This document shows, in pieces, positions 12,558 through 57,268 of a DNA stretch of 64,000 bases (positions are counted from its first letter, which is position 1; every line of letters begins with the position of its first letter). The notes below the pieces were generated by a model. It was not told where the DNA came from. It searched no databases and saw nothing but the letters and a program-made list of their open reading frames with translations. Made by a program: the position numbers and the translations under genes. The stretch lies in assembly GCF_057098645.1 (NCBI RefSeq), contig NZ_CM169472.1; one strand, written 5' to 3'.

Positions 12558-12622
12558 ATGACGTTGTCTCCTTATTTGCAAGAGGTGGCGAAGCGCCGCA
12601 CTTTTGCCATTATTTCTCACCC
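12558..12622 (+). pseudogene. prfC: Native 5' end of prfC ([22 protein letters not shown]...) cut off by prophage integration
   Basis: atgacgttgtctccttatttgcaagaggtggcgaagcgccgcacttttgccattatttctcaccc encodes the canonical PrfC N-terminus, then reading diverges into phage DNA at 12623. Confidence 0.8.
12609..12622. other. attL core (attatttctcaccc), identical 14-bp copy at attR
   Basis: Exact 14-bp identity with 55730..55743; chromosomal sequence on the left, phage sequence on the right. Confidence 0.7.
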
Positions 12623-12786
12623 CAATAATTAAGCCCAAATTAAAGCTCTTTTACTCTTTCAAAGTCCTTTCAGTTAATTGAGTGTTAATCATATAACTCA
12701 TTTAATAACATGATGTTATGTGGTTTCTTTAATTGAAAATTCTTTCATGTAACTTTAAATCGATCAGGTTGCTTTCATCAAAAATC

Positions 12787-12843
12787 TGTACATGTGCTTG
12801 TACATAATGTACAAAACAGCAGAGGTGGTTTTTTATTTGTACA
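12787..12843. promoter_or_regulatory. Cluster of four TGTACA motifs directly upstream of int; candidate integrase arm-type or repressor binding sites
   Basis: TGTACA at 12787, 12799, 12808 and 12838; TTGTACATAAT recurs at the attR side (55656). Confidence 0.4.
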
Positions 12844-14243: not shown

Positions 14244-15851
14244 TTATGGCTGAGACTCTGGTTTAGCAATCTCGTTTATAAATTTCTTAGCTACAACAGT
14301 CTCATACTTTCTATAATCATCAAGATATTGAACATCTATATGATTTTCGTAGCGAGCATTAAATTTATTTGCAGCCCCTGTTTTATCATCTTTACGTTCA
14401 TCCGTTGGTCTGAAAAATTTATGGTAGCGGCGGGGTGATACCCCCTCAAAATCACAAAATATTACTTTGGAAGATTCTTCGTTCTTTGTTATTGCATCAT
14501 TATGCAGATCAAGAGCAAGACTTTTATCAAATGGCTCTATATATACTACTTTTTTTATTCCAGCTGCGACAATATGCCTTGCACAGTTGTGGCAGGGATA
14601 GGTTGTCGTAAAAAGAATTTTATCTTTAGTATCGCCGTTTTGTTTTCTAGCCATTGATGTAATGACGTCCATTTCAGCATGAATTGATCTGGAGTACTCC
14701 ATTACACTTGATATTTTGCTGTCTTTGTAAATGCCTTCTGCAATATTATCTAATTTGTTTAGAAGTCGTGTTATATTAATATCGGCAACAGTTTGTCCTG
14801 CGGAAATACCTAATACAGTTCTTACTTCGGTTGATAATATGCTTTTTATACGGTCTTTAATTTTTAGCTTGTTTGCATCATTATAACACTTACCACTTTT
14901 GTGAACGCATCGATGATCGTTATCAAAATCATCACTGCTATACAACCCGCCACCAGCTTTAGGTACGTCGTTCTTACCCACGGCAAGCAAATTCCCTTCA
15001 TCATCAAACAGTGCAGCCCCTACTTGACGTGATAAACAAGCTGATTGTAATGATGTTGAAAAGGCAGCATACATACCTTTCTCGTTAAAAGTTGGTGTTA
15101 AACCATTTTTGCCATGAATAAGACCGAAAAACCGATCAATCTTCTTCTTTAATTCACTTTTTTGGCTGAAGTTATTTTTAATAAAAAAATCTGAATCAAG
15201 AATGGTTTCCCCGGTTCTTTGTCCATACGGATCAGAGGATTTATTATCAATATTGATAATTAAATGAAGGTCGTTCTTTGTCGATTCGTCATCAATGAGA
15301 TTCTGAATTCGGTAATCTAAATCGCGCAAAACTCCTAACAAATAGAAATTATGCTGATATATAACTCTGAATAACTCTATTTCTTCCGGCCTTTTGAATT
15401 GATCAATGATGAAGACAGTACCTTTATATTCATCATTATTATAATCATTATTATAATCAATATTATTTTTCTCTGCTGCGATTGCTGCAATAGCAGCTTC
15501 TGCAAGCAACTCATTTTTTTTGTAATGTTTACGAAGTTTATTGGCAATATCCTGGAGTTTTAAATGTCTATTAGCTTGTGTGCTTTCGGATACCTTCAGT
15601 GCTGCTGGCTCAAAATATAATGGGTTTTCCATAAGCGCACTTATGCGGATGTGTACAACATTATACCCCCATTCTTTGGATATCTCTTCGATAATTTTGT
15701 TTATCGTTCTCATGCCACATCCAACATATCCACACAATCCAAGATAAATATCTTTTGATTGTCGTGAATTCACAATCTCAAGTGATGATGCCGATGTTGA
15801 GCCTTTTTTTTCATTCAGCTTTTGTGGAGTTTTTTTTGCTGCTTCAGCCAT
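14244..15851 (-). CDS. AvcD-like / dCTP-deaminase-family defense protein: N-terminal degenerate P-loop NTPase (kinase-like) fused to a C-terminal dCMP/cytidine-deaminase (CDA-fold) domain
   Basis: 535 aa; degenerate Walker A LGLCGYVGCGMRT (aa 38-49); deaminase zinc motifs HAEMDVI (aa 391) and PCHNCARH (aa 419-426); AT-rich cargo between int and xis. Confidence 0.7.
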   Translation of the reverse strand: MAEAAKKTPQKLNEKKGSTSASSLEIVNSRQSKDIYLGLCGYVGCGMRTINKIIEEISKEWGYNVVHIRISALMENPLYFEPAALKVSESTQANRHLKLQDIANKLRKHYKKNELLAEAAIAAIAAEKNNIDYNNDYNNDEYKGTVFIIDQFKRPEEIELFRVIYQHNFYLLGVLRDLDYRIQNLIDDESTKNDLHLIINIDNKSSDPYGQRTGETILDSDFFIKNNFSQKSELKKKIDRFFGLIHGKNGLTPTFNEKGMYAAFSTSLQSACLSRQVGAALFDDEGNLLAVGKNDVPKAGGGLYSSDDFDNDHRCVHKSGKCYNDANKLKIKDRIKSILSTEVRTVLGISAGQTVADINITRLLNKLDNIAEGIYKDSKISSVMEYSRSIHAEMDVITSMARKQNGDTKDKILFTTTYPCHNCARHIVAAGIKKVVYIEPFDKSLALDLHNDAITKNEESSKVIFCDFEGVSPRRYHKFFRPTDERKDDKTGAANKFNARYENHIDVQYLDDYRKYETVVAKKFINEIAKPESQP

Positions 15852-19112: not shown

Positions 19113-19475
19113 TTAATGACCTGCTGCGCGTAGTTTTCCGTCAGGTTCACCGGCAAGAGTCAGTAATTGTCCCTGGTCTTCCTGCAGAATAGTCAGGCGA
19201 CCACCGCGATTGACATACATCGGCGTTTCGGTGGTGTCTTCTTCGGAAATTTTCCCGCGGTTAGTCGGGCGAACATATGAGAGTTTGTGTTTGATTTTCA
19301 CACGGTTCTCATCAAATGGTTCGATTTCCAGGTTGAGTGAGACCTTACCTTTGGTTTTCGTGTTCATCACACCGGAAGCGACTTCACTGAGAACTGCGCC
19401 GATTTTGGTTTCAAATACGCCGCCGTCCAGCTCCCCGATAAATGCCTGCACATCAGTACTGCGTTCGCTAGCCAT
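19113..19475 (-). CDS. Phage early protein, hypothetical (YfdP-like position)
   Basis: Likely start MASERSTDVQAFIG... preceded by AGGAG at the right spacing; the track ORF 19113..19706 runs further upstream with no RBS. Confidence 0.5.
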   Translation of the reverse strand: MASERSTDVQAFIGELDGGVFETKIGAVLSEVASGVMNTKTKGKVSLNLEIEPFDENRVKIKHKLSYVRPTNRGKISEEDTTETPMYVNRGGRLTILQEDQGQLLTLAGEPDGKLRAAGH

Positions 19476-20070
19476 TTTGCTGCTCCTCATCATATCGACC
19501 CTGCAAGGTCGGTTGGTTTCTCCACAAAACAGAGAAGAACACCTGCGGTGGCAGCCGCCCGGATGGATTGGGTTATGAGCCCGTCGTCCGGTGATGCTCT
19601 TCTCTGTTTTGTAAAAAGAGCGGTACCAGCCGGAAGCAAGTGTACAAACTGGTACCGCCAAAGCAGTGGCTGTTGTGGTGGGCTTGTCACTCAGGCGTAT
19701 GGTCAACCTGACAATCCGGTGTCCTCAACGGGGAAAGAGTAACCCCGCCATACTTACCGCCGCGCCATTTCGCGGATTACCACAACGCTGAGAGCACTTA
19801 GCCAGTTACAGCACCACACTTTGTCGCGGCTCCATAAATGCCCTCATCGTTGCACCCTGGTCTCTTCCCAGGCGTCAAACCGAATCGCCACGCTGGTTAG
19901 GCGTCTTATCAGCATCATCATTGACTTGCACATTCCGGCTACCTGGTTTGTTTGCCCGAGCAAGGAGTGGATTGTCCCCTTTAACGTCCCCAGACCGCTA
20001 ACGACGCATGTGCCATACGCCGTGTTACAACCAAATTTTGTTTAATCTTGCCTGTGCTGTGTTTCTTTTA

Positions 20071-20141: not shown

Positions 20142-20816
20142 TTAGGCCTTTATTATGTATCTTCTTGGTTTTCCTGAGAAAATCACTGTACCAATTATAG
20201 AGCAATTACCGTTGATCTTAATGTAAGGTTCAGGCCAGTTTGGGTTTAATGCTTTGAGGTAACGCTGTGTTCCATCTTCTATCAACCGCTTGAAGGTGGT
20301 TTCGCCTGTATCGTGCATCAATGCAATAACGTCGTCACCGTGGCAGGCAGGGACTTCAGGATCAACAAAAATCATGTCTCCCGGGCGGTACTCATCAATC
20401 ATTGAATCACCAATCACCCGCAAGATATAAGTCATTTCGCCACAGGGTACAGGGCAGGGGTAAGTTTCTGCTGTGCTCAAATCAACCTCAGAATAGCCAA
20501 CTTCTTTCCATGCTCCGGCCTGTACCCATGATATGACAGGGACTAACGTTATTTGTTTGTTAGTGATTGAAACATCAGGTTTTTTTGTGATGTTCGTGGT
20601 CTGGTGTTCTTGATCAAGCCATCCGACAGGCAGGTCGAAACATTTTTCGATGTGCCGCGCCATGCTGTCACCGATATTTTTAGTAGCACCATCTCCCATA
20701 AACCTGCTGGTCTGGGTTGGCTCGCGATCAATCATGGTGGCAAAGGAAGAATTCCCGCCAACACCATCTCTCAGTTTTCTGGCGTTAGACCGCCGGATGT
20801 CATGGACTGTTTTCAT
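20142..20816 (-). CDS. cI: CI-like prophage repressor (HTH plus LexA-like S24 peptidase domain)
   Basis: 224 aa; C-terminal S24 region with GDSM motif (VIGDSMIDEYRPGDMIFVDPE); divergent from a cro-like gene. Confidence 0.85.
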   Translation of the reverse strand: MKTVHDIRRSNARKLRDGVGGNSSFATMIDREPTQTSRFMGDGATKNIGDSMARHIEKCFDLPVGWLDQEHQTTNITKKPDVSITNKQITLVPVISWVQAGAWKEVGYSEVDLSTAETYPCPVPCGEMTYILRVIGDSMIDEYRPGDMIFVDPEVPACHGDDVIALMHDTGETTFKRLIEDGTQRYLKALNPNWPEPYIKINGNCSIIGTVIFSGKPRRYIIKA

Positions 20817-20851: not shown

Positions 20852-20906
20852 GTATCTTGAAGGTTCATCTTAATCATGTAATATGTATACCGGAGGTACA
20901 TATTGT

Positions 20907-21107
20907 ATGAAAGCGTATTGGGACTCTTTAACCAAAGAACAGCAGGGCGAGTTGGCCGGAAAAGTTGGCTCAACACCAGGCTATTTACGGCTGGTTTTCA
21001 ATGGTTATAAAAAAGCCAGTTTTGTGCTGGCTAAAAAACTTGAGCAATGCACGTCAGGTGCAATTACGAAATCTGACTTAAGACCGGATATCTATCCGAA
21101 AGATTAA
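20907..21107 (+). CDS. cro: Cro/YdaS-like HTH regulator
   Basis: Small HTH ORF divergent from cI; GGAGG RBS before the ATG at 20907. Confidence 0.7.
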   Translation: MKAYWDSLTKEQQGELAGKVGSTPGYLRLVFNGYKKASFVLAKKLEQCTSGAITKSDLRPDIYPKD

Positions 21108-21138
21108 CAGAACACCTTCAATTTTTAACCACAGAACG

Positions 21139-21702
21139 ATGAGGCTAACCGTGGGTAAGCATCACTGGAAAGTAGAAAAACAGCCTGAGTGGTACGTGAA
21201 AGCTGTCAGAAAAACTATCGCGGCGTTGCCGGGGGGGTACGCTGAAGCTGCTGAGTGGCTAGATGTAACAGAGAACGCTTTATTCAACCGCCTTCGTGCA
21301 GATGGCGATCAGATTTTCCCGCTGGGATGGGCAATGATTTTACAGCGCGCGGCTGGCACTCACTACATTGCGGATGCTGTCGCACAGTCTGCTGGTGGGG
21401 TGTTTGTATCGCTTCCTGAAATTGAGGAAGTAGAGAACGCCGATATAAACCAGCGCCTGCTGGAAGTCATCGAACAGATCGGGAGTTACTCAAAGCAGAT
21501 TCGTTCGGCAATCGAAGATGGGGTAGTGGAGCCACACGAGCAGACAGCAATTAATGATGAGTTGTATCTGTCAATTTCGAAGCTCCAGGAGCATGCAGCA
21601 CTGGTCTACAAAATCTTTTGCGCTCCAGAAAAGAGTGACGCCCGCGAGTGTGCAGCTCCGGGCGTCGTGGCGTTTTGTGTCTGTGGAGAAACTAACGCAT
21701 GA
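21139..21702 (+). CDS. CII-like / YdaT-family phage regulatory protein
   Basis: 187-aa ORF directly after cro; assigned by position and general resemblance to prophage CII/CP76-type proteins. Confidence 0.45.
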   Translation: MRLTVGKHHWKVEKQPEWYVKAVRKTIAALPGGYAEAAEWLDVTENALFNRLRADGDQIFPLGWAMILQRAAGTHYIADAVAQSAGGVFVSLPEIEEVENADINQRLLEVIEQIGSYSKQIRSAIEDGVVEPHEQTAINDELYLSISKLQEHAALVYKIFCAPEKSDARECAAPGVVAFCVCGETNA

Positions 21703-22535
21703 ACAGTTTAACGGCAAATAACCGTTTGTCGCAACAGCTGGTGGTCAGCGTCGCTGAACACCTGTTGTTACGGCATGAATGCAGATTACCAAATCACCTG
21801 GCTGTAAGTAACCACAGAGAACTTTACCTGACTGTGGGGGGCGAGTTGTGCAGGAACTTAACCGCTGGTTTCGTGACGGAAGAGGGCTTTATGTCCATGT
21901 TATTCGTTGGGAGCCAGAAACACAGCGCGTTATCTATCTTCGCAAAGACTACCCGCATGAGTGCTTTAGTCCTTTGTGGAAATTCAGGCGTGATTTTGTT
22001 GAGTGTGAAGGACCACCAGCACATTGATTCTGCCATTCCGGGACGTTACACTGTTCAGGCACCTTATAAAGCGGGTGCCGGGATTGGCGTCCTGGAAATG
22101 TTATCGGCGATATATGACGCGCCAGCGTCTTTTTTATCGTCTGCGTCTGTGCACACCCAAATTATGGTGGGCTGGACGGGGGCACCGAAAGGTGCGCCGG
22201 TTTCCGATAACGCCGGTTACGCCAACCCCGTTCAGTTCACCACCAGCGAAATTGGCGTTTCCGGTGGTGAAGGTAATTCACTGTTATCGGAGGCTGCCAT
22301 CATGGCTACTGTCCCAGCCCTCACTCGTCTGAATGATGAAGACTTACATAAACTCAGTTATGTAACAACTGCACTACGTGCTCTGCGCAAGGTAACTCTT
22401 TCGGATCCGCAGGCGCATCAAGTTCTGGTAGAAACCCTTCTTAACTTGCAGGCTGAACGTATTCGTCTGGCGGATAAGGCTAATTTTCATATTCACCGTC
22501 TCCTGAATATCAGCGGAGGGCATCGTCATGCTTAA
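21699..22535 (+). CDS. Hypothetical phage protein (replication-module position)
   Basis: 278-aa ORF translationally coupled between the CII-like and O-like genes; no motif recognised. Confidence 0.5.
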   Translation: MNSLTANNRLSQQLVVSVAEHLLLRHECRLPNHLAVSNHRELYLTVGGELCRNLTAGFVTEEGFMSMLFVGSQKHSALSIFAKTTRMSALVLCGNSGVILLSVKDHQHIDSAIPGRYTVQAPYKAGAGIGVLEMLSAIYDAPASFLSSASVHTQIMVGWTGAPKGAPVSDNAGYANPVQFTTSEIGVSGGEGNSLLSEAAIMATVPALTRLNDEDLHKLSYVTTALRALRKVTLSDPQAHQVLVETLLNLQAERIRLADKANFHIHRLLNISGGHRHA

Positions 22536-22764
22536 TCCGTTGATCCTCAATATTTGCCGTTTGCTTCAGCGTAAAAAAACATCAATTCCTACAGTTGGGC
22601 AGTGGTACACCACACCTGCAGGGCATGTTCTACGTGTTAGCCTGGTTGACCGTGAATGCCAGAAGGTGATTTGTGAACCGCTGGGCCGTAATTACCGCGT
22701 CAGTATGCCGCTTATAGCCTTTCGCTCCGGAAAAAACATGAAGCATCTCGGAGGTGCAGCATGA
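22528..22764 (+). CDS. Hypothetical small phage protein
   Basis: 78-aa ORF with overlapping stop/start coupling to its neighbours. Confidence 0.4.
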   Translation: MLNPLILNICRLLQRKKTSIPTVGQWYTTPAGHVLRVSLVDRECQKVICEPLGRNYRVSMPLIAFRSGKNMKHLGGAA

Positions 22765-23579
22765 GTATGGAGCTGATGGTTAAAGCGATGAAAATTCGAG
22801 TGGGTAATCCATTGCGAAAACTGGTTCTGATCAAGCTGGCTGATAATGCCAGCGATCAGGGTGAGTGCTGGCCCAGCTACCAGCATATTGCTGACCAGTG
22901 CGAGATTAGCAAACGTTCTGTGATGAATCATATTGCGGCCCTTTGTGAGTCCGGGCTGGTAAAAAAAGTCACCCGGAAAGGTGAAAAAGGTAACTCAAGT
23001 AATATCTATCTCCTTCATCTGGATGGTGCAGGAGATTCACTAGGGGGTAGTGCAAATAATTCACTATCTGGTGCAGCAAATTCACCAGGTAGTGCAGGAG
23101 TTGCACCAGGGGGTAGTGCAGGAGATTCACCCAGAACCAGTCACTCTTTTGAACCAGTCAAAGAACCAGTCAATGAACCAATAGCTGTTGGTGCATCAGT
23201 TGATGAGTCCGTGCGAGTTCGTTCAAACCGACCGGAATATTCTCCGGAGTTTGAGCAGGCATGGCTGGCATATCCCAAACGTGCTGGTGGCAATTCAAAA
23301 TCTGCAGCCTTCAAAGCCTGGAAAGCCCGTTTGAATGAGGGGGTAAACCCCGAAACCATGCTGGAAGGTGTGAAACGCTATGCGGGCTGGGTATCTGCGA
23401 TGGGTAACAGCGGCACACAATTTGTGAAACAGGCTGTCACGTTCTTTGGTCCGGATCGTCATTTCGAAGAATCCTGGGAAGTTCCTGCGGTATCTGCAGC
23501 CAGACGTGAGGACCCGTACTTCAAATCCAGTTACGACAACGTGGACTACAGCCAGATCCCGGCAGGATTCAGGGGGTGA
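22761..23579 (+). CDS. Replication initiator (O-like N-terminal HTH) with a DnaT-like C-terminal domain
   Basis: N-terminal HTH (IADQCEISKRSVMNHIAALCESGLV); Gly/Ser-rich linker encoded by repeats; C-terminus ...DYSQIPAGFRG matches host DnaT ...[10 protein letters not shown]. Confidence 0.7.
   Translation: MSMELMVKAMKIRVGNPLRKLVLIKLADNASDQGECWPSYQHIADQCEISKRSVMNHIAALCESGLVKKVTRKGEKGNSSNIYLLHLDGAGDSLGGSANNSLSGAANSPGSAGVAPGGSAGDSPRTSHSFEPVKEPVNEPIAVGASVDESVRVRSNRPEYSPEFEQAWLAYPKRAGGNSKSAAFKAWKARLNEGVNPETMLEGVKRYAGWVSAMGNSGTQFVKQAVTFFGPDRHFEESWEVPAVSAARREDPYFKSSYDNVDYSQIPAGFRG
23034..23190. repeat. Iteron-like direct repeats inside the O-like gene (candidate ori)
   Basis: ggtgcaggagattcac at 23035 and 23126; five gtagtgca/ggtgcag units; three gaaccagtca units at 23145..23182. 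Confidence 0.5.
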
Positions 23580-28495: not shown

Positions 28496-29548
28496 ATGAA
28501 AAATACTGTAAAAATAAACAGTGTTGATTTAATCAACGCTGATTGCCTGCATTTTATTCAGTCCCTGCCTGATAACTCCATTGATCTGATTGTTACCGAT
28601 CCGCCGTACTTCAAAGTGAAGCCCAACGGCTGGGACAATCAGTGGAAAGGGGACGAAGATTACCTGAAGTGGCTGGACCACTGTCTGGCCCAGTTCTGGC
28701 GGGTACTGAAACCAGCCGGAAGCCTTTACCTGTTCTGTGGGCATCGCCTGGCATCTGATATTGAGATCATGATGCGTGAACGTTTCAACGTGCTTAACCA
28801 TATCATCTGGGCGAAGCCGTCCGGACGTTGGAATGGGTGTAATAAAGAAAGTCTGCGCGCATATTTTCCTGCCACAGAGCGCGTTCTGTTTGCTGAACAT
28901 TACCAGGGGCCATATCGCGGCAAAAGTGACGGCTATGCGGCAAAAGAAAGGGAACTCAAACAGCACATAATGGCACCGCTGATATCGTATTTCAGGGATG
29001 CTCGTGCCGAACTGGGTATAACGGCAAAACAAATTGCTGAAGCCACAGGTAAGAAAAATATGGTTTCCCACTGGTTTGGTGCCAGTCAGTGGCAGTTGCC
29101 GAATGAGGCTGACTATCGGAAGTTACAGGCACTGTTTTCCCGTATAGCGGCAGAGAAGTTTCAGGAACAACAACTGGAACAACCACACCACCAGCTGGTG
29201 GCATCTTATGATTCACTGAATCGCAAATATTCTGAATTGCTGGATGAGTTTAAATCTCTCCGGCGCTATTTCTCCGTATCAGTCTCCGTGCCTTATACCG
29301 ATGTCTGGATGCATAAACCCGTTCAGTTCTACCCGGGTAAACATCCGTGTGAGAAACCGGCGGATATGCTCAGGCAAATAATCAATGCCAGTAGTCGACC
29401 TGGTGATCTGGTTGCTGATTTTTTTATGGGATCCGGTTCCACAATAAAAGCAGCAATGGCGCTGGGGCGTCGGGCCTTAGGTGTTGAGCTTGAGTCAGAG
29501 CGGTTTAACCAGACAGTGAAAGAGATAAACGAGCTGGTGGGGAAATAA
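28496..29548 (+). CDS. Orphan DNA methyltransferase (N6-adenine/N4-cytosine class, DPPY motif)
   Basis: LIVTDPPYF catalytic motif and a C-terminal SAM-binding region ([13 protein letters not shown]); no adjacent restriction gene. Confidence 0.8.
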
Positions 29549-53755: not shown

Positions 53756-54336
53756 TGGCATTCAGAATGAGTGAACAACCACGGACCATAAAAATTTATA
53801 ATCTGCTGGCCGGAACTAATGAATTTATTGGTGAAGGTGACGCATATATTCCGCCTCATACAGGTCTGCCTGTAAACAGTACCTATATTGCACCGCCAGA
53901 TATTCCGGCTGGTTTCGTGGCTGTTTTCAACAGTGATGAGTCATCGTGGCATCTCGTTGAAGATCATCGGGGTAAAACGGTTTATGACGTGGCTTCCGGC
54001 GACGCGTTATTTATTTCTGAACTCGGTCCGTTACCGGAAAATGTTACCTGGTTATCGCCGGAAGGGGAGTTTCAGAAGTGGAACGGCACAGCCTGGTTGA
54101 AGGATACGGAAGCAGAAAAACTGTTCCGGATCCGGGAGGCGGAAGAAACAAAAAACAACCTGATGCAGGTAGCCAGTGAGCATATTGCGCCGCTTCAGGA
54201 TGCTGCAGATCTGGAAATTGCAACGGAGGAAGAAATCTCGTTGCTGGAAGCATGGAAAAAGTATCGGGTATTGCTGAACCGTGTTGATACATCAACTGCA
54301 CCTGATATTGAGTGGCCAGCAGCACCTGTAGGATAA
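53755..54336 (+). CDS. tfa: Tail fiber assembly protein (Tfa)
   Basis: 193 aa following and coupled to stf; C-terminal ...[23 protein letters not shown]... Confidence 0.85.
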
Positions 54337-54434
54337 AACAAAAACTTTATATAGAGTGCTCTTTTTACAATGTCAGATAAATGCTGGCCGAAATGTAATT
54401 CATTAGAAGTAAAAAACAGAATGGTTTGAGGGTG

Positions 54435-54480
54435 TGTCATCCCTTTATTATTAATAGTGAAAGGGATGACATTCTTTTTT
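54435..54480 (+). terminator. Strong intrinsic terminator after the tail fiber operon
   Basis: tgtcatccctttattattaatagtgaaagggatgaca followed by ttctttttt. Confidence 0.75.
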
Positions 54481-54676
54481 AAGGAGTGTCTTTTTTATCG
54501 GAATATAAGTTGAGATAATGTTTAACTCGATTATAAAAATGTTTTTTCTTATCTCTTGGAATGCTTACTATTATATGCATTATGGGGCTTGTGTTTGCCG
54601 ATAATTTAGCTGATGCATACATTGAAGCAAGGAATTCAATATCAGTATTGTCAAAATTAAAACTTTCTCCATCCAT
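54479..54676 (-). CDS. Hypothetical small ORF in an AT-rich insert
   Basis: 65-aa ORF in very AT-rich DNA; no motif; may be non-coding. Confidence 0.25.
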   Translation of the reverse strand: MDGESFNFDNTDIEFLASMYASAKLSANTSPIMHIIVSIPRDKKKHFYNRVKHYLNLYSDKKDTP

Positions 54677-54996
54677 TTCAATTCCTTATGTGTTTGGCTC
54701 GGTATACTGTATCCCATGAGATTTTACGTAAATTGTCATATCTAATATTGCAATTATAATTGTAGCTAATTATTTTAAATTAGGTGAAAGTTTATTGCGA
54801 ATGATTAACTCGGAAAAAAAGATTTCTCACGGTTAGTAAGTATATTAGGTCAGTATTCAGATATGAGTAGTGTTAACGACTAAATTTGCAATCACATATA
54901 GATTTTTGTTCTAATAAAGATGTTTTATTTGGCGATTCGTCAAGCATCTCCACTTAAGCAATCGTATATATTAAGAGTGCAAAAGAGAAGGGACAA

Positions 54997-55095
54997 CGTT
55001 GCTCGCACTCTGGAATAAATATCGGGTATTGTTAAAGTGTGGTGATACATAATTGTACGGGATATTGAGTGGCCTGAAGTCCCAGTCATTGAGTA
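54997..55095 (+). pseudogene. Remnant of a tail fiber assembly gene 3' end
   Basis: ...ctggaataaatatcgggtattgttaaagtgtggtgatacat... is ~70% identical to the tfa 3' end at 54255..54336; reading frame broken. Confidence 0.6.
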
Positions 55096-55213
55096 ATCTT
55101 TTCGTGATATGCCGCAGAAACGTTGTATGCAGGAACGTGCTGCGGCTAACTGGTGAACTTTCGATAGTGCGGGTATTGAATGATTTCCAGCCGTTACCGA
55201 TTTTACGTGCTAA

Positions 55214-55462
55214 TTAGTGAACAAACCACTCGTCAGCAGACTCCCAGGTATCTTTCAGAGTTTCCTGAACAAAAGTTTTAGCTGAATCTTTATCGGCAGT
55301 GCGCGTAACAGAAAGGCCATCGTTGCTGGTGGTTTTTACGATCACCTCTACATCGTCATAACGCTTACTGATGCGTCGAGTTAATTCTTCCTTTAACGCA
55401 TCCACAGCACCGTTTGGCATTTTAGTCATTTTCTCTTTGGCTATGCAGATCTCAATACGCAT
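55214..55462 (-). CDS. DinI-like protein (SOS-regulated RecA modulator family)
   Basis: 82 aa, [11 protein letters not shown]...[16 protein letters not shown] closely parallels chromosomal DinI. Confidence 0.85.
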
Positions 55463-55477
55463 AAAAATCCCTCTACA

Positions 55478-55521
55478 CTGTGTTTGTATACAGTATTATT
55501 TTTAACTGTATGAATAAACAG
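55478..55521. promoter_or_regulatory. Two tandem LexA boxes (CTGT-N8-ACAG) in the dinI-like promoter
   Basis: CTGTgtttgtatACAG at 55478..55493 and CTGTatgaataaACAG at 55506..55521, directly upstream of the minus-strand dinI-like start. Confidence 0.8.
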
Positions 55522-55546
55522 TGTCAATAGAACAAAGATTGCTGCA

Positions 55547-55662
55547 TGTACAAATGTTCTTTGGCTACAAATACACCTACTGATCATGTTCTGCTATGCT
55601 CTGATACCTCCAAAATGTACAATCAGCGGCATGAATTTTTCTTTGTACATATGATTGTACAT
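55547..55662. promoter_or_regulatory. TGTACA motif cluster on the attR arm / phage-supplied prfC promoter region
   Basis: TGTACA at 55547, 55616, 55644 and 55657; mirrors the cluster at attL. Confidence 0.4.
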
Positions 55663-55681
55663 AATCAAAGAGACAACAATT

Positions 55682-57268
55682 ATGACAAGCCTTTTGGCCG
55701 CAGAGGTAGCGAAAAGAAGAACCTTTGCAATTATTTCTCACCCGGACGCCGGTAAGACTACCATCACCGAGAAGGTGCTGCTGTTCGGACAGGCCATTCA
55801 GACTGCCGGTACAGTAAAAGGCCGTGGTTCCAACCAGCACGCTAAGTCGGACTGGATGGAGATGGAAAAGCAGCGTGGGATCTCCATTACTACGTCTGTG
55901 ATGCAGTTTCCGTATCACGATTGCCTGGTTAACCTGCTCGACACCCCGGGGCACGAAGACTTCTCGGAAGATACCTACCGTACCCTGACGGCGGTGGACT
56001 GCTGCCTGATGGTTATCGACGCCGCAAAAGGTGTTGAAGATCGTACCCGTAAGCTGATGGAAGTTACCCGTCTGCGCGACACGCCGATCCTCACCTTTAT
56101 GAACAAACTTGACCGTGATATCCGCGACCCGATGGAATTGCTCGATGAAGTTGAGAACGAGCTGAAAATTGGCTGCGCACCGATCACCTGGCCAATTGGC
56201 TGCGGCAAGCTGTTTAAAGGCGTTTACCACCTTTATAAAGATGAAACCTATCTCTATCAGAGCGGTAAAGGGCACACCATTCAGGAAGTCCGCATTGTTA
56301 AAGGGCTGAATAACCCGGATCTCGATGCTGCGGTTGGTGAAGATCTGGCACAGCAGCTGCGTGACGAACTGGAACTGGTTAAAGGCGCGTCTAACGAGTT
56401 CGACAAAGAGCTGTTCCTTGCGGGCGAAATCACTCCGGTATTCTTCGGTACTGCGCTGGGTAACTTCGGCGTTGATCATATGCTGGATGGCCTGGTGGAG
56501 TGGGCGCCTGCGCCGATGCCGCGTCAGACCGATACCCGTACCGTAGAAGCGAGCGAAGATAAATTTACCGGCTTCGTATTTAAAATTCAGGCCAACATGG
56601 ACCCGAAACACCGCGACCGCGTGGCGTTTATGCGTGTGGTGTCCGGTAAATATGAAAAAGGCATGAAACTGCGCCAGGTGCGCACTGCGAAAGATGTGGT
56701 GATCTCCGACGCGCTGACCTTTATGGCGGGTGACCGTTCGCACGTTGAAGAAGCGTATCCGGGCGATATCCTCGGCCTGCACAACCACGGCACCATTCAG
56801 ATCGGCGACACCTTTACCCAGGGTGAGATGATGAAGTTCACCGGTATTCCGAACTTCGCACCAGAACTGTTCCGTCGTATCCGCCTGAAAGATCCGCTGA
56901 AGCAAAAACAGCTGCTCAAAGGGCTGGTACAGCTTTCCGAAGAGGGCGCGGTGCAGGTGTTCCGTCCAATCTCCAACAACGATCTGATCGTTGGTGCAGT
57001 TGGTGTGCTGCAGTTTGATGTGGTGGTAGCGCGCCTGAAGAGCGAATACAACGTTGAAGCAGTGTATGAGTCAGTCAACGTTGCCACTGCCCGCTGGGTA
57101 GAATGTGCAGACGCGAAGAAATTCGAAGAGTTCAAGCGTAAGAACGAAAGCCAACTGGCGCTTGATGGCGGCGATAACCTCGCTTACATCGCTACCAGCA
57201 TGGTCAACCTGCGCCTGGCACAGGAACGTTATCCGGACGTTCAGTTCCACCAGACCCGCGAGCATTAA
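55682..57268 (+). CDS. prfC: Peptide chain release factor 3 with a phage-supplied replacement N-terminus
   Basis: Translational GTPase with G1 motif [12 protein letters not shown]; N-terminus [16 protein letters not shown]... replaces native [17 protein letters not shown]... Confidence 0.9.
55730..55743. other. attR core (attatttctcaccc)
   Basis: Exact copy of 12609..12622; phage sequence on the left, native prfC on the right. Confidence 0.7.

Follow-up and report, generated by a model that had tools for sequence, protein, structure and literature searches.

Introduction

E. coli DinI stabilizes RecA filaments, and LexA, UmuD, and lambda-type CI repressors all make use of the same elements of the RecA groove (PMC9926225). 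Mutational analysis has identified DinI residues L13, L21, W71, W77, and F78 as a pocket for RecA F203, while the acidic residues E24, E69, and D76 face a basic patch of RecA (Gao et al., PMC9926225).

LexA-controlled prophage homologues of dinI are already known from Salmonella, and DinI genes are routinely annotated in phages. The Salmonella prophages Gifsy-1, -2, and -3 carry a LexA-controlled operon consisting of dinI, an antirepressor gene (gfoA/gftA), and irsA (Lemire et al., PMC3121763). Activation of the Gifsy dinI homologues by mitomycin C depends on their promoter and on the LexA box 5' of them (PMC3121763), and nalidixic acid raises their expression 4.6- to 23-fold (PMC8072944). Non-polar deletions of Gifsy dinI have no significant effect on induction; the Gifsy repressors are non-cleavable (PMC3121763). 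LexA likewise represses Tum of coliphage 186, the C-terminal half of which is DinI-like (PMC3121763).

Here, we describe a dinI-like gene located near one end of a lambdoid prophage, in a 64,000-nt stretch of E. coli chromosome referred to below as the window. We consider it likely that the gene is a LexA-repressed, SOS-induced moron of the DinI family, whose product acts on RecA filaments. Genes of this type are common and largely expected in prophages, and the locus adds to a known theme without starting another: its two boxes and the lack of a downstream gene are a small variation, a difference of degree. It is also a clean natural case of a moron controlled by a stress regulator of the host, and its two-operator design invites comparison with one-operator dinI promoters.

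Results and Discussion

Genomic Setting of the dinI-like Gene

The prophage is inserted within the 5' end of prfC, which codes for release factor 3 and is a listed integration site of Stx and Cdt phages. An identical 14-bp core, ATTATTTCTCACCC, is present at 12609-12622 and at 55730-55743. At the left junction (window positions 12558-12630) a 24-codon stump is all that remains of the native prfC start, and at the right junction (55682-55745) the upstream region and the N terminus are new and come from the phage, with the ATG at 55682. SXT/R391 elements use the same 5'-end replacement strategy at prfC. Eight of the 16 TGTACA hexamers of the window lie in two clusters of four at the prophage junctions (12787-12843 and 55547-55661); these clusters are probably the arm-type integrase binding sites of attP.

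The dinI-like gene follows the tail-fiber and tail-fiber-assembly genes, adjoins att, and is monocistronic. The right-hand TGTACA cluster begins about 20 bp upstream of its -35 element.

The Product Is a Single-Domain DinI-Family Protein

The coding sequence (55214..55462, minus strand) opens with ATG and specifies 82 amino acids followed by a stop codon. A Shine-Dalgarno motif, GAGGG (55469..55473, minus strand), can be read 6 nt 5' of the start codon. The original prediction had named this gene a DinI homolog, and searches against Pfam, PHROG, PDB, and Foldseek confirmed it. The protein matches the Pfam DinI family over its full length (PF06183, E = 1.3e-19, model positions 1-63 of 63), and its only relatives of solved structure in the PDB are E. 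coli DinI itself (1GHH) and the RecA-DinI complex (7YWA; E = 8e-13). An AlphaFold model (mean pLDDT 85.8) matched both structures in Foldseek (E about 1.5e-7, TM 0.79-0.83, with 0.82 to 1GHH), predicting a single-domain alpha/beta DinI fold of about 80 aa. E. coli DinI (dinI, b1061) belongs to the same Pfam family and has the same length and predicted fold, with about 44-49% identity.

When the window protein was aligned with E. coli DinI, all eight of the RecA-contact residues listed above were found to be kept, five of them identical and three conservatively replaced (L13→M15, L21→L23, E24→E26, E69→D71, W71→W73, D76→E78, W77→W79, F78→F80). Family, fold, and contact residues, all assigned in silico, thus predict a protein that binds RecA. 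Its score against the NCBIfam DinI equivalog NF007893 (72.5 bits) is below the curated cut-off of 111; we therefore regard it as a DinI-like paralogue and not as an orthologue, and its activity on RecA may differ from that of DinI in degree or direction. RefSeq names it a "DinI-like family protein" (WP_001217546.1). Comparison with homologues gave dN/dS values of 0.08-0.21, and by this sequence measure the gene is under purifying selection.

The protein also matches PHROG 189, "RecA filament binding protein DinI" (E = 5.5e-31), where it covers only positions 71-149 of the 151-position profile. Such partial coverage fits a family that includes two-domain, Tum-like members, and so accords with another reading of the locus, in which the DinI-like protein is an antirepressor system, or part of one, comparable to Gifsy gfoA/gftA or 186 Tum. 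Relief from LexA repression would in that case induce the prophage itself or a co-resident one by inactivating a repressor, and not via RecA. Known examples lend this some weight: the DinI-like half of Tum is one, and another is the Gifsy operon, where the dinI homologue comes first and a small antirepressor follows (PMC3121763). Tum, however, is a protein of 146 aa with an extra N-terminal antirepressor half, whereas the window protein consists of the DinI domain alone and has every RecA-contact residue in place. In PSP3, moreover, antirepressor activity is assigned to the non-DinI half, according to work cited in PMC3121763.

Two LexA-Type Operators Flank the -10 Element of the Predicted Promoter

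Consensus and weighted scans both placed a promoter upstream of the dinI-like gene, on the minus strand. It consists of a -35 hexamer TTGACA (55522..55527) and a -10 hexamer AAAAAT (55498..55503, four of six positions matching the consensus) separated by 18 nt, a 10/12 match overall. With a score of 11.2 in our own weighted scan it is the best candidate in 55400-55700 and among the 24 best in the window on both strands. The promoter was placed by its match to the consensus, and the transcription start, near 55490, is likewise a predicted one.

Two boxes of the form CTGT-N8-ACAG, 28 bp apart, had been proposed for this region, and both were present where the original prediction had put them. 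Read on the gene's strand (minus), the proximal operator, box 1, is TACTGTATACAAACACAGTG (55476..55495; core 55478-55493) and matches the consensus TACTGTATATATATACAGTA at 16 of 20 positions; the distal operator, box 2, is CACTGTTTATTCATACAGTT (55504..55523; core 55506-55521) and matches it at 15 of 20. The cores are 28 bp apart, start to start. Scored with a LexA weight matrix, box 1 reaches 20.9 bits and box 2 reaches 22.9 bits, both in the upper half of the 26 E. coli training sites; one of these sites (K-12 dinI) was re-read from sequence, and bit values are approximate. Box 2 takes up the spacer that separates the -35 from the -10, and box 1 begins 2 nt past the -10 and spans the expected transcription start, so that the two boxes flank the -10 of the region's best promoter-like site. 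LexA bound to either box should shut out RNA polymerase.

Chance palindromes were considered as the origin of the boxes and were ruled out by sequence shuffling and by conservation (see below). The window holds five matches to CTGT-N8-ACAG, with 0.67 expected, and none of 100 dinucleotide shuffles reached five. It has three sites of at least 20 bits, compared with a mean of 0.005 per shuffle (200 dinucleotide shuffles), and a pair of sites scoring 18 bits or more and no farther than 60 bp apart did not occur in any of 200 shuffles. Both boxes are real and far above chance level. They can be described in silico as strong, promoter-overlapping, and evolutionarily conserved LexA-type operators, and we infer from these properties that LexA binds them and that the gene is SOS inducible. 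In the searchable literature, coverage of which is incomplete, we found no LexA-binding, transcript, or protein data on the gene and no description of the two-operator arrangement or of experiments on the E. coli clade; the supplement of an EHEC ciprofloxacin transcriptome likewise held nothing on it.

Only one strong box, at a distance of 13-19 nt from the ATG, is present in K-12 dinI, in the 77-aa Gifsy-type genes (those of Gifsy-1, mEp237, SEN34, a Klebsiella phage, and an Aeromonas phage were compared), and in Klebsiella phage P18-100. K-12 dinI has its known LexA box 19 nt from the ATG, one operator as against the two of the window gene, which also differs in being prophage-borne and mobile and in having a consensus -35. 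More than one strong operator per promoter, as in the window, is a feature of the multi-operator SOS promoters of lexA, recN, ydjM, and the colicin genes. The boxes of lexA are about 21 bp apart and those of colicin genes overlap; the window boxes, 28 bp from center to center with the -10 between them, are set apart from both. Three boxes have been reported for Salmonella recN and two each for lexA and dinI of that organism (PMC8072944). At about 2.7 helical turns, the 28-bp spacing gives no hint of face-to-face cooperativity, and we can therefore only infer the purpose of the second box.

The dinI-like gene and prfC diverge from a 219-bp region that contains the boxes and is entirely phage DNA, and a promoter-like sequence on the plus strand (TCTACA-16-TATTAT, 55472-55499) overlaps box 1. 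The LexA sites might, accordingly, also or mainly govern transcription in the opposite direction, toward the 5' end of prfC in the lysogen or toward int in the excised phage, which would make release factor 3 or the integrase SOS-responsive. Yet the plus-strand match scores only 6.5, and the window contains 461 matches scoring at least 6 on its two strands, which puts it at background level. The weighted scan found no better plus-strand candidate in 55463-55681, and no convincing plus-strand promoter for the rebuilt prfC. The behavior of the operator pair among related prophages, described next, speaks against this possibility as well.

Promoter, Operators, Gene, and Terminator Form a Mobile Cassette

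A scan of IMG/VR yielded 80 loci with near-identical proteins, 55 of them with full upstream sequence. All 55 retain the segment from the -35 to the ATG, while the DNA 5' of the -35 belongs to several contexts unrelated to one another. The CTGT and ACAG of both boxes do not change among the 17 distinct promoter variants, and neither do the -35 (TTGAYA) or the core AAAAT of the -10, which reads (A/G)AAAAT throughout; variation is concentrated in the N8 centers and the leader, and the flanks vary too. Two boxes with the same geometry were present in about 60 related prophage copies.

The same two-box register recurs in the more distant homologues of phages 1720a-02, PhiR12_2, P-EibC, and BP-4795 (protein identity 79, 69, 63, and 60%, respectively), in which the two sites end 41-42 and 13 nt from the ATG. 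Values of dS between these genes and the window gene range from 0.65 to more than 1. For P-EibC, where gene dS exceeds 1, the 50-nt stretch that opens with the -35 and closes with box 1 is only about 10% different from its counterpart in the window. The Stx1 phage BP-4795 has weakened versions of both LexA boxes (15.5 and 15.6 bits), its homologue (L087 181-496) has arginine in place of the conserved tryptophan of the TWES motif, and an annotated "putative avirulence protein" lies 3' of the gene on the same strand; this copy is possibly decaying or rewired.

BLAST comparison of about 60 loci showed that similarity across contexts starts at 55527-55531, that is, at the -35, and mostly ends at 55111-55125, just past a hairpin (GCCGCAG...CTGCGGC; 55111..55148, minus strand). 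Folding, covariation (compensatory changes in 5 of 12 pairs of the conserved stem), and comparison with relatives identify this hairpin as the family's intrinsic terminator. In most relatives it is followed by TTTTT, whereas the window copy has ATATCACG instead (55103-55148), its T-run having been replaced at a recombination breakpoint. Because the T-run is absent, termination in the window copy may be inefficient, and transcripts may read antisense into the tail-fiber region. For the same reason a simple terminator scan of 54900-55800 returned nothing, and the hairpin was recognized only through comparison with relatives.

The sharp boundaries at the -35 and at the hairpin thus define a moron made up of promoter, operators, gene, and terminator: a unit with its own promoter and terminator, abruptly delimited in otherwise unrelated contexts. 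The lambdoid morons lambda bor and lom are organized likewise, as promoter-gene-terminator units with sharp boundaries that occupy an accessory region and are common to differing phages. Morons of the bor/lom type are constitutive in the lysogen, whereas the window cassette would be repressed by host LexA.

These boundaries also bear on the direction in which the operators work. The pair accompanies the dinI-like gene in many contexts where prfC is absent, and similarity stops at the -35. Together with the background-level score of the plus-strand match, this makes control of prfC or int by the LexA sites highly improbable, and we retain the assignment of both operators to the dinI-like gene.

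Of 5426 complete E. coli genomes, 1818 contain the gene with its promoter, in up to seven places per genome; O157:H7 strains have four to six copies each. They are also found in phages 2H10, cdtI, and mEp460 and in many Stx1- and Stx2-converting phages, and copies of the cassette occur in defective prophages too.

No Antirepressor Gene Follows the dinI-like Gene

Like the window gene, the Gifsy-type genes are prophage-borne DinI homologues immediately preceded by a LexA box; their 77-aa products are about 42% identical to the window protein. Only a single box is present, 18-19 nt from the start codon, and the genes are located in the early region after the replication genes, where they are followed by a small same-strand ORF or antirepressor and a DUF1367 gene. 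The window gene, in contrast, has two boxes, is monocistronic, lies near att, and belongs to a prophage with a cleavable S24-type CI.

We examined the region 3' of the gene by listing ORFs of at least 20 aa in 54337-55213, by an Rfam scan, and by alignment to the 3' end of the tail-fiber-assembly gene (tfa). Within about 120 nt past the stop codon, no ORF of 20 aa or more opens on the same strand, the nearest being 54940..55089, and the 537 bp 3' of the gene contain only the terminator hairpin and the decayed 3' end of a tail-fiber-assembly gene. A downstream antirepressor of the Gifsy type was therefore ruled out. A 65-aa ORF at 54479..54676, outside the conserved cassette, has no match in PHROG, NCBIfam, or PADLOC.

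The tail-fiber-assembly remnant occupies 54873-55110 and abuts the dinI-like terminator. Rfam family IS009 scores 37.8 bits in this decayed copy and 223.6 bits in the intact tfa (54098-54296). In the ancestral layout tfa probably converged on the cassette, and about 640 bp, including the 65-aa ORF, were inserted later.

The repressor of the prophage is relevant here as well. The original prediction had included an S24-type CI among the SOS-linked components of the prophage, and this was borne out: the product of 20142..20816 (minus strand) contains a Peptidase_S24 domain (E = 4.6e-26). Since CI is of the S24 type, induction requires no antirepressor. With no same-strand ORF behind the gene, a cassette that in most contexts ends at the hairpin, and a product limited to the DinI domain, we think it very unlikely that the locus is an antirepressor system, and we return to a product that acts on RecA filaments.

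Proposed Mechanism of Action

For the LexA-repressed, SOS-induced moron that we favor, the following course of events can be envisaged. In the lysogen, host LexA dimers would occupy both operators, one in the promoter spacer and one at the transcription start, excluding RNA polymerase and keeping the gene tightly off; the two sites would act as independent road-blocks. Upon DNA damage, RecA filaments would form and LexA would cleave itself, and once LexA was deeply depleted both sites would be empty and the gene strongly expressed. Because two strong sites must both be vacant, derepression is probably late and steep.

The product would then bind in the RecA filament groove in the manner of DinI. 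Since LexA, UmuD, and the CI repressors share elements of that groove, it is expected to stabilize filaments and, when abundant, to compete with slower substrates. These would be UmuD and S24-type phage repressors, the prophage's own CI among them.

Net action on prophage induction is the weakest step of this scheme. Feedback is plausible, and the same speculation on induction has been voiced for Stx phages (PMC8456039), but we regard a measurable effect of the DinI-like protein on induction of its own prophage as doubtful. The lack of phenotype of the Gifsy dinI deletions, the one genetic test of such an effect, does not transfer cleanly to the window prophage, because the Gifsy repressors are non-cleavable.

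Alternatively, the gene may be a lysogenic-conversion factor that benefits the host and has no role in the phage's own switch. Extra DinI would stabilize RecA filaments and restrain UmuD cleavage, resulting in better survival or less mutagenesis. The moron organization of the cassette and its position in an accessory region between tail-fiber genes and att agree with this, as do its prevalence among E. coli genomes (1818 of 5426, each with at most seven copies, defective prophages included), the Gifsy dinI deletions without an induction phenotype (PMC3121763), and the filament stabilization known for E. coli DinI (PMC9926225). Yet the host already has a dinI of its own, and every molecular step is common to the mechanism outlined above, only the beneficiary being different. 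A purely host-directed role is possible, if in our estimation the less likely case.

A LexA-repressed gene whose product acts on RecA filaments could also be read more ambitiously, as a dual-operator cassette that sets the threshold of prophage induction and mediates competition between prophages. Expression would occur only after deep LexA depletion, and the product would occupy the RecA groove elements used by CI (PMC9926225), delaying cleavage of S24 repressors both in its own prophage and in co-residents such as Stx phages. We consider this distinctly unlikely; if it were true, dose (up to seven copies) would tune the induction of toxin-converting prophages.

Should the favored mechanism hold, a third of E. 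coli genomes would carry one to seven extra SOS-inducible RecA-filament binders, and pathogenic strains with Stx- and Cdt-converting phages would be among the carriers. SOS mutagenesis and the threshold of RecA-dependent prophage induction could then be shifted, with possible consequences for antibiotic-triggered toxin release.

Other Features of the Prophage

In addition to CI, a "LexA-like binder" had been proposed for this prophage. None was found: searches of five ORFs (19113..19706, 20142..20816, 21139..21702, 21699..22535, and 22761..23579) with Pfam, NCBIfam, and PHROG revealed no LexA DNA-binding domain. The first of these, 19113..19706, has no Pfam match. The immunity region (20883-22535) resembles that of prophage e14 and comprises, besides the S24 repressor, a small Cro-like ORF (20883..21107), a YmfL-family regulator (21139..21702; 169 bits in NCBIfam), and an Ash-family protein identified by its family match (21699..22535). 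The ORF at 22761..23579 codes for a replication protein with HTH_36/DnaD_N domain matches. A weak CTGT-N8-ACAG sequence at 21802, inside the Ash-family gene, scores below 12 bits in the LexA matrix.

A third strong LexA-like site, TACTGTAAAAATAAACAGTG, is found at 28504-28523 (22.6 bits, where a shuffled window would be expected to have 0.005 such sites). It coincides with codons 3-9 of a DNA methyltransferase gene in the late region (28496..29548). The motif CTGT-N8-(A/C)CAG is kept at the starts of the methyltransferase genes of phiNP, Stx2a_1447, phiP27, and a Providencia phage (71% identity), and its conservation extends to third codon positions.

Adjoining the integrase gene, a 535-aa protein (14244-15851, minus strand) matches the PADLOC dCTP deaminase model PDLC02373 (E = 1.9e-164) and also phage dCMP-deaminase profiles. 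Judged by these profile matches, it is probably the product of an AvcD-like nucleotide-depletion anti-phage gene of the prophage.
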